A DNA stretch of 64,000 nucleotides from Massalongia carnosa (GCA_965645245.1 OZ287069.1:434001-498000); one strand, 5' to 3'. Shown: positions 48,612 to 53,624, counted from the stretch's first letter. Notes: generated from the letters alone by a model not told the origin. A program made the numbers and translations.

Positions 48612-49461
48612 AGGTCAAAGAGTATGTCTCAGGGTCTGGAGGAGAGATAGTAGAAATGCATGGAGATGTTCCGGAGATTGAGAAGAGGATTTCGGCCGCT
48701 GTGGTTTAAGAGGAACGAATAACGAGGACAGATTCCGACTCGAAGGGAACGCGTGTTCATGTAGCATTTTTGCTTCCTAGATGAAAAATCAGAATGGCTT
48801 TCAGGTACATATGAAGCATCAATACTATGTCTTGGTTTCATTCGCAATTTTGACCTCGGAATTTAATCATGATGTGTAATATACTTTTTCGGTATTTCGG
48901 CATCTACTTCTGCTGCTTCAAACATGAACAAACCATCCTATAGCTTTCTATGAGCATTATATGTTATATATATCTTTTCTGCATATTTTTGGATTAGATA
49001 TGAACGGTCAACCTAGTTTTGAGCGAATTTCCGGAAGCTTTTGTCACTGCCTCTGAAGGATTTTTCGCTGCCTCACAAGAAATCGTCCTTCTTCCGAATA
49101 TTCCCAAATTCAATAACTCCTGGGCAGCCTCTCATCGAAGCCATTGATGGCTTAATTAAGACCATTAATAACCTTAAAACTGGAGTTATCACCCTTAAAT
49201 CTGAGGTTTCTTCTCTCAAAACTGAAGTACTGTCGCTTGCAAAAGGGTCTGCGCGGACCCTGAAATGGCCACGACACCTCAAAATTTAGCGAAAATAACG
49301 ACCAACCAGCCAAACTTCCCTCACCGTCTATGTGATAACTATGCATTGTCACCTGCTCTAGTACTGAAATTCGTAGCTGTAGAAAATAGTCACTGCCATC
49401 CCCAGCTCCTTCGCCCTTGCCCGCTCTATTTTTCGTCAAATTCTCCCCCCCATTCTTCGAC

Positions 49462-51534
49462 ATGAAACTAAGAGGTCCTCGCTCAAAACGAGCGAATACC
49501 GGGCCTCCAAATGCCTCGACAGAGCCTGTAAAGGCAAAGATAAAACTGACCTTGGCGGGGCCGAAGGGCAAAGATGCTGTCGACGACGATGATCCCATAT
49601 CGACGCCAACCTCAGCTCCGAAGGCATCTCGCAGGCAAAAGATCGTTCCCAAGACAAAGCCCCCCCCCCAAGCAAAGTCTTCCAAAGCAAAGCCTCCCAA
49701 AGCAAAGCCTCCCAAAGCAAAGCCCCCTCCCATTATCAAGCCCAGGCCGCCTCCCGGCTCGAATTATTATGCATCCCTAATGGTCCCGGATGACGAAGAT
49801 GATACAATTGACTCGGAGAATGACGTAGATGTAGAAAGTGTCGAGGGGAATGTCGAGGAGATTGCCGAGGGGAATGTTGAGGAAGAAGTCGAGAGTGCTG
49901 AGGGGAATGTTTTCGTTTCTGCTGCAAAGAAGATTGTCAAAAATGCCACTACTAGAAAGCCAAAGTCAAATCCACGTACCAAGACCAAGAAGACGCCCTC
50001 GTCAGACTCGCCCATTGTCATCACCTACCTGCTGAATGTGACGGTGATGTTTGAAAAGGATGTCGTTCATCAGATGTCCAGTACTCGAAAAGTTAACTCG
50101 GAATCGGAATTCGAAAAGAGATTATTTTTCAGACCTCATCTCAATGAGATGAGTTTAAAGGCTCAACGTCATGCAGATGACAAAACTTTTGCTTGTCGAC
50201 TAGTCAATGTCAAAGCCACTGTTGCATGGAATGGCATCAAACCTCAAGAACGTATGTCTCTGATGTTGGAAGAGTCTTGGCTTCCAATTGAAGAAGTCTT
50301 GATTTTCCGATATGAGAATGGAGCAAAAAGTTTGGCCGTCGATCTAATCTATCAATTCGCTCGGACCAAAAGCGGTGAAATTCCAGAAGATCCGACCGCT
50401 GCCGTTTCCAAAAAGTTGGGAACGGCCACCTTGAAATTGCAGAAGGAGTTGGAGGAGAGGGCCATTCTTCATGGTCAGACAGTTGAAAGAATGACGGCTC
50501 TACAATCTCTGCATGTCTGTAAGAAGAAGACATGTGAGAATTTCGGCCGATACTGTTGGAACGATGAAGAAAGAGATCAACATTACATTATCAGCAGTCA
50601 TCAGTTCGTGGCTTGGAATAAGGCATTGGATGATGACGTTTCGGGAGTCACTTCTCAGATGCCTCCATCGACTATCAGGGAAAGTATGTATTCGCAAAAA
50701 GGTAAAAGGAAGACTGCATCATCGACTCCGAAACAGGAAAGTCAGGAAGATTCGACCAGACATTTGCATCCCATCTATCAGCATCCCGCGTATCAATCCT
50801 TCCCCCCCTGGGCATTTGCCCCCCCCTCGACGTTTGTCAACCCCTCAGCATTTGCCAACCCCTCGGCATTTATTCCTTCTTCACCACTTCCCCAGCTTCA
50901 TTCGTCCCAGTTTCCTTCTTATTCTCCTTCTCAAGCTTCCGACTTCGGACGTCATCGAGACGAAACGCCTGTGGATCGAAGAGATCGTCAAGGAAGTTAT
51001 GCCCCCTCCGTCGTCGCCCCTCCCGCCGCTCCGAGCAGTCCAGTGGAGGAAGATTTGGAAGACTATGTCAATTGGCATATCCAATCCAAACCTCATCTGA
51101 AAGGCGTACTGAGGCATGCGTACGATCGACTGATGGAAGGTGGGTACGATTTAATGACTATCCAGACATTAAAGGGTATTGAGCATCAGTCCTTCTGGTC
51201 GAAGCTGAGTATTCCTCCCGGTATCGGAATTCAGCTGGCACGAGATGTCAGCAAATTTGGAAGACAGATGCAGATGCAAATGCCTCCGCCTTCCTCTCGG
51301 CGAATGCCTCCGCCCCCGTCTCGGCAAATGTCTCGACGTCCACGTTACCTGCCAACTTCGCAAATGACCACTCAGGCCAATACTCAGGTCATAAAAGAGG
51401 TGGATGAGGAAGAGGTGGATGAGACACTAGGGGAGATAAAAAGGGTTGATCCGAGAATGGAAGATGCCATTGAGGAGGATGAGTTGGAAAATACGTATAA
51501 TCTAGAATACGACTATGCCGAAGAAGAATATTAG
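49462..51534 (+). CDS. Transposon-borne hypothetical protein (690 aa from the first ATG)
   Basis: Intact intronless ORF inside the TIRs. K/P-rich repeats (KAKPP)n, acidic stretch, Cys/His motif CKKKTCENFGRYCW...H, P/S-rich linker, possible SAM-like helical domain, acidic tail. Confidence 0.8.
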   Translation: MKLRGPRSKRANTGPPNASTEPVKAKIKLTLAGPKGKDAVDDDDPISTPTSAPKASRRQKIVPKTKPPPQAKSSKAKPPKAKPPKAKPPPIIKPRPPPGSNYYASLMVPDDEDDTIDSENDVDVESVEGNVEEIAEGNVEEEVESAEGNVFVSAAKKIVKNATTRKPKSNPRTKTKKTPSSDSPIVITYLLNVTVMFEKDVVHQMSSTRKVNSESEFEKRLFFRPHLNEMSLKAQRHADDKTFACRLVNVKATVAWNGIKPQERMSLMLEESWLPIEEVLIFRYENGAKSLAVDLIYQFARTKSGEIPEDPTAAVSKKLGTATLKLQKELEERAILHGQTVERMTALQSLHVCKKKTCENFGRYCWNDEERDQHYIISSHQFVAWNKALDDDVSGVTSQMPPSTIRESMYSQKGKRKTASSTPKQESQEDSTRHLHPIYQHPAYQSFPPWAFAPPSTFVNPSAFANPSAFIPSSPLPQLHSSQFPSYSPSQASDFGRHRDETPVDRRDRQGSYAPSVVAPPAAPSSPVEEDLEDYVNWHIQSKPHLKGVLRHAYDRLMEGGYDLMTIQTLKGIEHQSFWSKLSIPPGIGIQLARDVSKFGRQMQMQMPPPSSRRMPPPPSRQMSRRPRYLPTSQMTTQANTQVIKEVDEEEVDETLGEIKRVDPRMEDAIEEDELENTYNLEYDYAEEEY

Positions 51535-51585
51535 ATTAGATTTCGAAATGAGACAGACAAGATGTCTGCAGACAGCAATCTAGAT

Positions 51586-52625
51586 CTAGATCTGAATAGT
51601 GGGATACTGAATACCGGCCATTCTAAATAAATTTCCCGGGTCTCCCATTCGACTTCTTTCTTTGACTGCATCCCGAAGAAATTGTCCGAACCCTCCATAC
51701 ACCTCTGTATATGAGAGACTCATCTCTCCATTTCGACGAATCCATGCTTTCAGCAATGCAAACGACGTCTCAATTGGATTGAAATCCGGAGAATAAGGAG
51801 GTAGTCTTGCCAAGGTGACGTTGGCAGCCTCACACATCTGAATGAGATCGTCATTCCAATGAATTCGAGCATTATCTAACACTAAAACAGATCTAGGACC
51901 TCCGTCGGCAGTGCAATGAGGAAGGACGTGATTTAGAACAAAATCATTGAAGATCAATGCAGTTATGGAGCCCTGATGCACCTCCCAAGCTATATATCCA
52001 TCGACCGTAAATGCAGGAAGAATGCTCCATCTCTTTGACCTTCTCAAATCCTGAACCATGGTCGCAGGAACACCGGCCGGTGCCCAGCCGTATCGACGAT
52101 CACCTATATATGAGATGAGAAGAAAGATGAGAAGAAGATAGGAAGATAAATACCGGTTCTTTCACACGCGGCACTTTCGTCTAGGAAGACCAATTGCTCG
52201 GCAGTCCAACCTCCTAGTCATTGCATCCAACCGTCGCGTAGAGTTTGATTCCGTTGAGCTGCCTGACGTCTCACCTTCTTTCGATTCCAACCAAGTCGTC
52301 TGAGGGCACGACTGACAGTGGATTCGTCGACGGAAATCTGAAATTCATCCCAGACAAACCAGCACATTTCATCCAGGTAGGCATGGGGGCGTTGCTCCAG
52401 GAATTCCAACAGTTGCAATTCATGATACTGACTCAACTTTCTAGGTCGATGACCAAGAGTTATTTGTGGAGCGACGACGTCTCCAAAATTCGTCCAATTG
52501 GACCTCATCAATTGCACCTGCCGAAGACTGACTCCGGTGACAGCTGCTATTCTTTTGTTATCGTCATTTCTTACAAATCTGAGGGTAATTGTCTCCCTCA
52601 TGGCGGGACTGAGGGGGCGAGGCAT
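51586..52625 (-). pseudogene. DD34E transposase (HTH + DDE_3), one intron (52104-52153), one premature stop
   Basis: VFLDESA, VLDNARIH, LPPYSPDFNPIE with 34 residues between D and E. 330 codons after splicing; TGA at 52218-52220 in WMQ*LGGW. Confidence 0.9.
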
Positions 52626-53624
52626 CTTGACGAAAAATAGAGCGGGCAAGGGCGGAGGAGCTGGGGATGGCAGTGACTATATTCTACAGCTACGAATTTC
52701 AGTACTAGAACAGGTAGTAATGCATAGTTATCACATAGACGGTGAGGGAAGTTTGGCTGGTTGGTTGTTATTTTCGCTAAATTTTGAGGTGTCGTGGCCA
52801 TTTCAGGGTCCGCGCAGACCCTTTGCAAGCGACAGTAACTACTCTTGGAACAGATATGAATAACCGGTTCGAGAATCTCGAGCTTCGTATGTACGTAGAG
52901 TTAGATCACTCCTACTCCAAACAAAGCTTATTATTCTAATACTATTTTACAGTGCCATCAATCTTCTTCCCCGGTTACATAAGTCTCACATAATAAGCCA
53001 TTAGACCACACTTCACCGGCTTCACAATGCACGGAATATGGCTGTGGAGACCATTCCAAAGACTATCTTTGATCTGATGCGTTTGAGAGGTCAGTTATAA
53101 TCTCAAGGGAGGATTTTTCAGGCAATTAAATTTTGATAGATCCAGCGCTATCGAGCCTGTTTAATGCGTACGGGTTTTCCAGGTGATGAAATTGCTGAGC
53201 TTTGGGGGGGGGACGTTAAGTACATACACAACTCATTAATACTGTTATCGATGTTACCGATGTATACATACAACACTGAGAAGGGCTCTAATGTAACTAC
53301 GAGTAGATATTTACTTTGCCGAGGTAGCCCTAAATGAACAAGTATAATTTACGAAGCTCCTCCCTACAGTGTTTGAACAGCAATGTGCAAGCTGCGCTTG
53401 AAGGTAACTACAGTATAGTAAACTACAATTTGCTTCACCGTTCCCACTTTCTGAGTTAATTTCTTTGCTGTGTGTTGCAGATTACATGACCTTGATTTCT
53501 GCTCTAGCTGGTGTGTAGAGCCAGTTAAGATTTACGATCTTTGCATCTTAGCAACCTTCACTTTGGTGCGAAGAGCATGTAGGTTTCTTACATCTTGTGG
53601 ATAAAGCCCTCAGATTCAAGGAAA

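Follow-up and report, generated by a model that had tools for sequence, protein, structure and literature searches.

Typical Tc1/mariner elements carry a transposase gene only. TBE, Tec and Dici are the accepted multi-gene exceptions in the IS630-Tc1-mariner superfamily, bivalve L31 elements have two ORFs, and Ant1 is an element of Aspergillus niger. Elements of the MuDR/Mutator type have a MULE-type transposase and a duplication of about 9 bp. Tc1/mariner elements are described as more common in fungi than any other DNA transposons (PMC5751038), some fungal Tc1 elements are reported with long TIRs of 141-169 bp (PMC9977792), and impala is named among the DD34E Tc1-like fungal elements (PMC3203195). 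Dici1 and Dici2 of Diutina catenulata are described with three CDSs and TIRs of 8 or 33 bp, the central transposase (473-477 aa) being accompanied by an orphan of 143-146 aa and a transposase relic; by the same account, 22 relatives are without such genes (PMC13469147). The ciliate TBE and Tec elements are DD34E ITm transposons with three ORFs, of which the extra conserved ones are under purifying selection (PMC7325037). Maize MuDR is described as having two convergent genes with promoters in TIRs of about 215 bp, the second gene being of unknown function (PMC3440606). For Pyrenophora tritici-repentis, a 3.4-kb Tc1/Mariner 'Osmo-CC transduplication' is reported with 46 members, 31 of them near-identical and full length, with transcripts that map to the element and a similar pair in Alternaria (PMC3538342). 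Finally, VANC of VANDAL and TnpA of Spm are described as proteins that activate the very transposons encoding them (bioRxiv 10.64898/2026.08.24.746577).

Here we analysed a window of 64,000 nt from Massalongia carnosa (GCA_965645245.1 OZ287069.1:434001-498000), which holds a two-gene Tc1/IS630-type element at 49230..52835. Its features are as follows.

49228..49229, no strand: target-site duplication TA, left.
49230..49439, plus strand: left TIR, 210 nt, with an inner part that is CT-rich when read on the ORF2 sense strand; candidate ORF2 promoter/start site.
49462..51534, plus strand: ORF2, 690 aa, intact in the window copy; a basic, Pro-rich N-terminus is followed by two folded regions and an acidic tail.
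50011..50361, plus strand: ORF2 aa 184-300, predicted beta-grasp (ubiquitin/PB1-like) domain.
50425..50706, plus strand: ORF2 aa 322-415, long helix and Cys3-His motif, W385, PP401-402; putative metal-binding.
51034..51270, plus strand: ORF2 aa 525-603, SSP motif and predicted SAM-like helical domain.
51535..51585, no strand: 51-nt spacer separating the convergent stop codons.
51586..52103, minus strand: transposase exon 2, with the second D and the E of DD34E (spacing 34); Pfam DDE_3, E 3e-20; NF033545 IS630.
52104..52153, minus strand: predicted 50-nt GT-AG intron of the transposase; position the same in family B.
52154..52625, minus strand: transposase exon 1, with two HTH motifs, a GRPR-like linker and the first catalytic D; Pfam HTH_33, HTH_23.
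52627..52835, minus strand: right TIR, 209 nt; candidate transposase promoter/start site.
52836..52837, no strand: target-site duplication TA, right.

The earlier note had described near-identical TIRs of about 210 bp with TA duplications around two convergent genes, and this proved exact to the base: the repeats of 210 and 209 nt are 96% alike and differ at eight places (seven mismatches and one indel). We also reproduced its ATG positions (49462 for ORF2, 52625 for the transposase), which lie 22 and 1 nt inward of the left and right TIR, respectively, and its 51 nt between the stops. Neither ATG is within a repeat, and ORF2 makes up 57% of the element. Overlapping ORFs of 193 and 195 aa were rejected as genes, being alternative frames over repeats, and a composite transposon was rejected since internal TIRs are absent. 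No direct repeats of 12-16 nt at up to two mismatches were found inside the TIR.

Two features are absent from the earlier note, a predicted intron and a premature stop. Removal of the 50-nt intron (52153-52104), a frame-restoring prediction from sequence, gives a transposase of 329 aa in which D149, D234 and E269 form the DD34E signature, and it gives an open 329-aa frame in 4/6 other scored copies of the same family (family A). The window copy itself has a premature stop at transposase codon 136 (52218-52220) and is therefore non-autonomous, with ORF2 intact; at this site the contigs of 4/4 sequencing runs carry another base. These contigs contain neither a splice joint nor a start site and so do not bear on transcription. 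TA was present at 13/13 family-A ends and 29/30 family-B ends scored, as well as at the ends of families C and E. Together with the TIRs and a DDE catalytic domain preceded by an N-terminal HTH pair, this TA duplication places the element in the IS630-Tc1-mariner superfamily. Pfam DDE_3 and HTH_33 were above cut-off in the transposase, the family-E transposase scored 111 bits against NF033545 (cut-off 100), and the spacing from the second D to the E across 30 elements was 34 in 23 and 33 in 3, with 4 not scored. The conserved second gene departs from the single-gene trait typical of the Tc1 family (DD34E), and the element is filed as a Tc1 variant rather than a canonical member, an assignment made from DD34E spacing, TIRs, TA and domain matches alone.

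Four diverged families with the same two-gene convergent layout (A, B, C and E) are present in the M. carnosa genome, with copy numbers of about 8, 25, 2 (with further derivatives) and 12 or more; all four have TIRs that share CG (positions 5-6) and TGCAAAA (positions 9-15). Family A comprises about 8 near-full copies at 98-100% and one fragment, and read depth on the element is about 7x that of the flank (3057 versus 435, run X1). Copies of families A and B are young, at 0.2-1.1% from the majority base; heavy RIP was not seen in these two families (C>T in 38/108 and 171/414 changes; CpA in 14/38 and 45/171), and some of their copies keep both genes open. The window element is a young member of a fungal cut-and-paste transposon family that has multiplied recently, and these properties of families A and B make the function of ORF2 directly testable in this genome. 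In family D (at least 15 copies) the transposase is dead and ORF2 is deleted to half of its SAM-like domain; since this family spread with both genes broken, neither gene is needed in cis. The copy numbers also bear on the idea that ORF2 is a brake on transposition or a host-benefit gene, kept for that reason. Purifying selection and linkage, described below, are compatible with any function that benefits the element carrying the gene, but the ORF2-bearing families stand at 8-25 recent copies here, and a pure brake would favour ORF2-less autonomous mutants, whereas the ORF2-less forms examined in this genome are transposase-dead. We regard this idea as improbable.

Linkage of the two genes was assessed in metagenomes at informative loci, that is, transposase loci with enough downstream DNA, and from the transposase side only because ORF2 alignments were too variable for a scan. 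A convergent ORF2 homologue was found at 40/48 such loci, or in 30/36 clusters at 90% nucleotide identity. All 111 of the 111 ORF2-domain matches were downstream of the transposase on the opposite strand, inverted repeats surrounded both genes in 21 loci, and the controls gave 0 matches. An ORF2 match was absent from 8/48 loci; most metagenome loci without ORF2 look truncated or deleted, and L141 is possibly a genuine relative with one gene. The earlier note had set copies lacking the second gene against its proposal of a dedicated accessory factor. Such copies do exist, as deletion derivatives (family D and several metagenome loci), but the proposal stands, since the examined family-D copies are transposase-dead and most of the metagenome exceptions look truncated or deleted.

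The same data argue against reading ORF2 as a host gene that was taken up by transduplication and does nothing for the element, which is how the similar-sized Pyrenophora element was read in 2013, as described (PMC3538342), and with which the existence of 482 unnamed clusters of ORF2 homologues without genomic context would be compatible. No stand-alone homologue appeared among 51, 48 and 64 genome matches, all of which lie at or near element copies or have the family-D breakpoint (five were not opened individually); position and orientation are the same in those 30 of the 36 metagenome clusters; and constraint has been kept inside elements over saturated synonymous distance. Capture is thereby largely refuted and in our judgement very improbable. 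Word-based searches for ORF2 homologues returned mostly proteins of this same assembly, none of them named, the Atlas clusters near ORF2 at 0.90-0.92 were mostly from Basidiomycota and Oomycota, unnamed and usable as leads only, and a viral-contig scan with ORF2 gave no match.

ORF2 evolves under purifying selection, with a dN/dS of about 0.1-0.3. Between families A and B the pN/pS was 0.35 (0.28-0.44) for the ORF2 core and 0.15 (0.08-0.25) for the SAM-like domain, with ORF2 synonymous sites near saturation, like those of transposase exon 1. The ORF2 and transposase trees of 30 elements have 16/27 splits in common (shuffled mean 0.2, maximum 2) and the corresponding distances gave a Mantel rho of 0.43, an agreement that physical linkage alone would be expected to give too. 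Median identity among these elements is 19% for ORF2 versus 49% for the transposase, ORF2 diverging much faster. Taken together, the architecture, the copy number and youth, the fixed convergent linkage in deeply diverged elements, the purifying selection on ORF2 and the matching trees are established with near certainty. The view that the second gene is a dedicated accessory gene and not cargo is strongly backed by linkage, selection, tree match and the lack of a stand-alone copy in this genome.

MURB and the Myb-like protein of Harbinger are proposed transposition cofactors, and the main rival to our preferred explanation is that ORF2 is one as well, binding the transposase or the TIRs and aiding entry into the nucleus, pairing of the ends, choice of target or integration. 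The near-obligate linkage and the tree match are consistent with this, the TIR sequence common to both upstream regions would keep the two proteins in balance, and the PB1 and SAM folds that ORF2 resembles are protein-interaction modules. However, the transposase has parts for DNA binding as well as for catalysis, and DD34E relatives with one gene, Tc1-MP1 and others, are described (PMC9977792, PMC13469147). In addition, families A and B have apparently swapped a tract of transposase exon 2 but not the ORF2 next to it, and one locus (L085) shows a well-supported conflict between the ORF2 and transposase trees. On balance, we consider a cofactor role unlikely.

Neither ORF2 nor its homologues had a Pfam match above cut-off, ORF2 had no NCBIfam match, and comparison by sequence with solved structures gave no match (best E 0.03). 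Foldseek with the ORF2 models gave nothing at E<=0.001 from either PDB or the viral library; for the core, it ranked superantigen beta-grasp domains highest, a likeness that we read as one of fold only. The region at aa 184-300 was modelled with a pLDDT of 91.8 and the predicted order strand-strand-helix-strand-strand-helix-strand, that of a beta-grasp with two helices. Its best structural match was the PB1 domain of NBR1 (Z 6.7, rmsd 3.2 over 83), and 7 of the top 9 rows were PB1 domains or PB1-bearing kinase fragments, although the PB1 matches, at Z 5.8-6.7, are tied by a streptokinase beta-grasp at Z 6.6. The hallmarks of PB1 are a basic lysine, an acidic OPCA surface and a DxEGD motif; inspected by eye, the strand-1 lysine and DxEGD are not conserved in ORF2, which has only acidic residues before helix 2. 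Further along, the motif W-x-C-x4-C-x-N-x4-C-x8-H (C353, C358, C365 and H374) is a probable metal-binding site. Among 98 aligned ORF2 sequences, C353 is kept in 97, C358 in 94, C365 in 97, H374 in 96 and W385 in 97.

The SAM-like region (aa 525-603; pLDDT 93.9) is found in 36/37 ORF2 homologues of at least 500 aa. It was modelled as a helical bundle, its best structural match was the tankyrase SAM domain (Z 7.4, rmsd 2.3 over 62), and SAM domains dominate its match list; a search of 50 ORF2 sequences for Pfam SAM gave no match at E<=1, and an Atlas SAM cluster at 0.81 is a lead only. ORF2 is thus predicted to carry PB1-like and SAM-like folds, two types typical of self-assembling proteins, at middling Z scores of 6-7.4, and fold likeness shows no function. 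Solved examples of both modules, NBR1 PB1 and tankyrase SAM, form filaments. No HTH or other known type of nucleic-acid-binding domain was found in ORF2.

In our preferred explanation, this lineage of fungal IS630/Tc1 (DD34E) transposons keeps a conserved second gene facing the transposase. Transcription of each gene would start in the TIR at its end of the element, and the ORF2 protein would assemble with itself in the nucleus and, acting in trans, sustain the expression of its own elements in the face of host silencing. As a whole, from the two-gene element and TIR-driven genes to a trans-acting, self-assembling, counter-silencing ORF2, this explanation is plausible and could nearly as well prove right as wrong. 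Action in trans and polymer formation are what we infer from these data, and the role itself, as a counter-silencing factor or activator, is proposed tentatively by analogy and is rather open to doubt. A regulatory or host-facing role is favoured by a transposase that has both HTH and DD34E parts, by the fast divergence of ORF2 and by the filament-type modules. ORF2 likely helps the element to stay active; a need for such a gene is not known in the Tc1 class.

The promoter and start site of each gene probably lie in the inner part of its TIR, given the geometry and the MuDR precedent; the predicted place is the CT-rich stretch, past the ATGs found at TIR positions 100-112. Co-regulation of the two genes, which the earlier note proposed from the shared TIR, is possible, and the two TIRs differ at eight places. 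Almost nothing but TIR is upstream of either ATG in families A, B and E. The pyrimidine fraction is 0.78 in the 50 nt before the ORF2 ATG, versus a window 95th percentile of 0.68, and 0.74 before the transposase ATG; outside families A and B a CT-rich leader is not clear. The TIRs of family C and of several metagenome relatives are shorter, and the ATG there is 40-150 nt past the repeat. Among relatives, TIRs of 34-215 nt were seen, some of them truncated at contig ends, and the distance from TIR to ATG ranges from about -5 to +150 nt; the close spacing of family A is therefore not a general feature.

A further possibility is that ORF2 acts on RNA, either shielding overlapping convergent transcripts from RNA silencing or tuning transposase output. 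Some SAM domains bind RNA. The stop-to-stop gap, measured at 17 loci, ranges from 2 to 654 nt (median 163); in 8/17 it is 2-51 nt, so that 3′ UTRs would overlap the facing gene, and antisense RNA of MuDR is described as arising by failed termination (PMC3440606). In the other 9/17 loci, however, the gap is 163-654 nt, and we think an RNA role improbable, if somewhat less so than a brake.

A clade that keeps a second gene of 600-750 aa over deep divergence would point to an unrecognised step, be it silencing escape, assembly or targeting, and hundreds of 'hypothetical' fungal proteins would be explained as transposon genes. A single similar element has been published as cargo; no family-level description of a two-gene fungal Tc1 lineage was found in the open literature, Repbase and subscription papers being outside the search. 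That single element, the Pyrenophora Osmo-CC transduplication, is by its description alike in size, fungal Tc1/Mariner TIRs and two coding regions, and its second ORF was read as cargo from a coiled-coil Pfam match. That profile, PF08946, matched no ORF2 sequence among sets of 50 (E<=1) and 54, and the Pyrenophora match is perhaps to a lineage-specific coiled coil. Set beside the window element by description only, it could well belong to this two-gene family, in which case the published gene-capture case would be recast.

The fungal DD34E Tc1-like elements such as Tc1-MP1 are like the window element in TA duplication, TIRs and an HTH-HTH-DD34E transposase, but they have one transposase, to which the window element adds a larger conserved convergent gene. 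Dici1 and Dici2, as described, are similar in that they are DD34E elements of the ITm superfamily from a fungus, have CDSs besides the transposase, duplicate TA and went through recent bursts; however, a three-CDS layout and a transposase of 432-478 aa set the Dici family apart from an element with two genes, 210-bp TIRs and a 329-aa transposase. The ciliate TBE and Tec elements also combine DD34E with extra conserved ORFs under purifying selection, but are ciliate-restricted, and their accessory zinc-finger protein and tyrosine recombinase differ from ORF2 by description. MuDR, as described, similarly places two convergent genes behind TIRs of about 215 bp. It belongs to the Mutator superfamily, whereas the window element has a DDE_3/IS630 transposase and TA duplication, and the likeness, one of layout alone, is presumably convergent. 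VANC and TnpA, from plant Mutator-like and CACTA elements, serve as the model for the favoured function of ORF2; unlike ORF2, in which none were found, TnpA is described with HTH DNA-binding domains. A possible but doubtful extension of these comparisons is that a widespread, unnamed fungal Tc1-like clade encodes, from a mirror-image TIR promoter, a polymer-forming counter-silencing protein (PB1-like, Cys3-His, SAM-like), which would be the fungal counterpart of VANC and TnpA in a MuDR-like design reached independently in ITm.

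The two-gene element is real and not an artefact. Occupying 49230–52835 between two TA dinucleotides, it carries terminal inverted repeats (TIRs) that differ by 7 mismatches and 1 indel and enclose a transposase gene and a facing second gene, ORF2, with 51 nt between the convergent stop codons. On recomputation, all figures given in the earlier note for TIRs, start codons and stops were correct, but its two-gene description had overlooked an intron in the transposase gene and a stop at codon 136.

Features of the element in the window
49230–49439, left TIR
49462–51534, + strand, ORF2, 690 aa, start 22 nt past the inner edge of the left TIR
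52625, − strand, transposase ATG, 1 nt past the inner edge of the right TIR
52627–52835, right TIR

The predicted intron (52153–52104) is 50 nt long with GT-AG ends and has the identical position in family B, a related two-gene family in the same genome. After splicing, the transposase would be 329 aa long; it has HTH motifs, a GRPR-like linker and the residues D149-D234-E269, that is, DD34E. Codon 136, a stop in the window copy, has a sense base in contigs from 4/4 public runs; the frame is open in four of the six other copies scored of the window element's own family, A (a seventh lacks the 5′ end). Identity between A and B is 85–87% across transposase exon 2 and the spacer (51480–52080) versus 55–77% elsewhere, and pS is 0.32 there versus ~0.7 outside, a jump likely reflecting recombination between the families. 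The flanking genes encode glutamate-cysteine ligase and a CDK-type kinase, both with introns; the host is probably a filamentous fungus. A small host-side reading frame (49001–49229, 52838–52945; left side translated, right side judged by eye) seems to be interrupted by the element; its heptads are coiled-coil-like and the frame itself is shifted.

The genome assembly (52 Mb in 25 contigs) contains four such families, A, B, C and E, and the convergent gene pair is present in 4/4. Family A has ~8 near-full copies at 98–100% identity and one fragment, in agreement with a read depth of the element ~7x that of its flank. Family B has ~25 copies of 3.67 kb (TIRs ~205–213 nt, ~70% nucleotide identity), family C has 2 near-full copies of 3.5 kb (TIRs ~153 nt; identity to A 58% in transposase exon 2 and 27% in ORF2), and family E has at least 12 long copies of 3.7 kb (TIRs ~149 nt) with an intronless transposase that is 31–44% identical. 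The ends of all four share CG at positions 5–6 and TGCAAAA at 9–15, and TA was present at 13/13 family-A ends, some of these loci being halves of one copy, and at 29/30 family-B ends scored. In A and B copies 0.2–1.1% of sites are off the majority base and CpA bias is not strong; family E has a milder CpA excess (93/192 C>T).

Of 8 ORF2 copies in the assembly, only that of the window is free of a frameshift or large interruption, and a short-read contig spans 49412–51423 gap-free. Most breaks in the other copies are of 1–2 nt and lie in homopolymer runs; some may be assembly errors. The ORF2 tail contains a 15-nt unit (51395–51423) that encodes an acidic pentapeptide; in two family-A copies, on contigs C17 and C12 (loci L007/L010 and L008/L009), this unit is expanded to ~20–35 in-frame copies. 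On contig C4 (2128783–2135032; loci L004 and L067), a family-A copy abuts or lies inside a copy of family D, with one end joined to a partly duplicated TIR.

Family D is a non-autonomous 2.6-kb derivative of C, with at least 15 copies versus 2 of its parent. In most of the 10 copies translated, transposase exon 1 has the same deletion together with the same stop and frameshift. Exon 2 carries a ~290-bp insertion, and of ORF2 nothing remains but the final half of the C-terminal domain. The second gene is thus dispensable in cis; it is also conserved, selected and co-inherited.

The earlier note had proposed that ORF2 is a dedicated accessory gene, and its linkage bears this out. Three single-protein searches of the assembly (51, 48 and 64 matches) found no stand-alone host homologue; among the matches, two 5′ pieces were classed by position, at distances of 1 kb and 11 kb to a B copy, and three short ones by the family-D breakpoint that they carry. 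Searched against 1.84 billion representatives, an ORF2-core profile from the four families matched 482 clusters at E ≤ 0.001, 87 of them at 1e-10. Among the best 150 of the 482, long homologues follow a single common plan, and the C-terminal domain is present in 36/37 of at least 500 aa. One 632-aa homologue lies on an element-sized contig of 3704 nt. No Pfam family scored above cut-off for the homologues scanned (54 in one set, 50 in another).

Linkage was assessed from the transposase side by a metagenome scan, from which the best 80 of at least 476 confirmed loci (at least 595 candidates) were kept, so that the sample is skewed to close relatives. Where the downstream sequence extended for 1300 nt or more, 40 of 48 loci had an ORF2 homologue convergent to the transposase (30/36 after clustering at 90% nucleotide identity, 28/33 at 80%), as did 14 of 32 shorter ones. 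All 111 of 111 ORF2 domain matches were on the opposite strand, downstream of the transposase, and at 21 loci of this sample inverted repeats enclose both genes; the same profiles gave 0 matches on the remaining window sequence or on reversed loci. The 8 loci without a match were judged by eye: L136 and L140 are elements of 2.1 kb that retain an apparent ORF2 start, L149 has sub-threshold remnants within 1.3 kb, L083 amounts to a remnant of 1.06 kb, L084 is truncated, L132 enters a simple repeat and L146 is degraded. L141 (2900–4100) carries a divergent DD34E-like transposase with no ORF2 match in 2 kb downstream, and may be a genuine one-gene relative.

Synonymous sites between A and B are near saturation (pS 0.71 in the ORF2 core, 0.73 in transposase exon 1). 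Over the whole ORF the pN/pS ratio is 0.46; it falls to 0.35 (0.28–0.44) in the ORF2 core and to 0.15 (0.08–0.25) in the C-terminal domain, with an approximate corrected dN/dS of 0.08–0.27. For 30 elements (the 40 with adequate coverage minus 10 more than 90% alike), the ORF2 and transposase trees have 16 of 27 splits in common, against a shuffled mean of 0.2, and the distances correlate (Mantel rho 0.43, p 0.0005). Since linkage by itself yields congruence, the trees show long co-inheritance, not interaction. All listed conflicts between well-supported splits involve locus L085. There the transposase lies near families A–C and ORF2 near E, with another inverted-repeat element between; an ORF2 swap or nested chimera is possible. 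Median identity is 19% for ORF2 versus 49% for the transposase, so ORF2 is diverging much faster. As the earlier note inferred, ORF2 is more than cargo; that it is inert is very improbable.

A model of ORF2 residues 184–417 (98 sequences; pLDDT 91.8) includes a beta-grasp domain; PB1 domains head its structural matches (NBR1, Z 6.7, rmsd 3.2, 83 aligned), with streptokinase level at 6.6. A long helix follows, then a W-x-C-x4-C-x-N-x4-C-x8-H motif with Cys and His conserved in 94–97 of 98 sequences, which likely binds metal. As modelled (pLDDT 93.9), residues 525–603 resemble SAM folds, with tankyrase at Z 7.4 (rmsd 2.3, 62 aligned). Foldseek gave no match at E ≤ 0.001 for the modelled domains and the Z scores are middling, so we call them PB1-like and SAM-like, not members. 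PB1 and SAM folds often form head-to-tail polymers, and filament structures are among the fold matches. Basic stretches in ORF2 suggest nuclear import.

Start codons lie at element positions 211/233 (A), 214–222/233 (B), ~216/221 (C) and ~165/159 (E). In A, B and E at most ~25 nt of non-TIR DNA precedes either ATG, so any element-borne promoter must be in the TIR. The 50 nt upstream of all four A and B start codons are 74–84% pyrimidine (window 95th percentile, 68%), and CT-rich start regions are typical of filamentous-fungal genes. This arrangement does not hold throughout: family C has ~65 nt between TIR and ATG, and in metagenome relatives the TIRs are shorter, with the ATG (chosen mechanically) offset by as much as 150 nt. 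Nor is the CT-rich leader a general feature. MuDR provides a direct precedent, its convergent gene pair having promoters and start sites inside ~215-bp TIRs (PMC3440606). We consider it quite probable, on this sequence layout, that the TIRs carry promoters. The family-B TIR contains an ATG (L021:1581 and L021:4926), absent in A, from which either gene can be read in frame; the two B proteins could share nearly identical first ten residues.

In the mechanism we propose, each gene would be transcribed from the TIRs, the transposase would cut and paste at TA, and ORF2 would act in trans as a self-assembling factor. Of five possible roles we tentatively prefer that ORF2 keeps cognate elements expressed, in view of the apparently complete transposase, the fast evolution of ORF2 and the existence of such activators in plant elements (VANC and TnpA; bioRxiv 10.64898/2026.08.24.746577). 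A cofactor role, in which ORF2 would assist a transposase that itself looks complete, is somewhat less probable, action at the RNA level is improbable, and a brake or host benefit is more improbable still.

By its predicted DD34E transposase the element belongs to the IS630-Tc1-mariner superfamily, though not to its canonical one-gene Tc1 type. MuDR has a similar layout, but the window element is no Mutator. Ciliate and Diutina (yeast) ITm elements are also multi-ORF, but their extra genes differ (PMC7325037 and PMC13469147). Such a second gene is not described in the accessible parts of PMC9977792, PMC5751038, PMC5576322 and PMC3203195, and a term search of PMC2836289, likewise partial, returned nothing relevant. 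A family-level description is absent from the literature searched; Repbase, outside that search, may hold unnamed examples. The window contributes young, little-mutated copies, linkage counts and predicted folds. Closest among published cases is a Tc1/Mariner element from Pyrenophora, 3.4 kb long with two ORFs; it has 46 members, transcripts map to it, and it was interpreted as gene capture (PMC3538342). It may belong to the same two-gene family.
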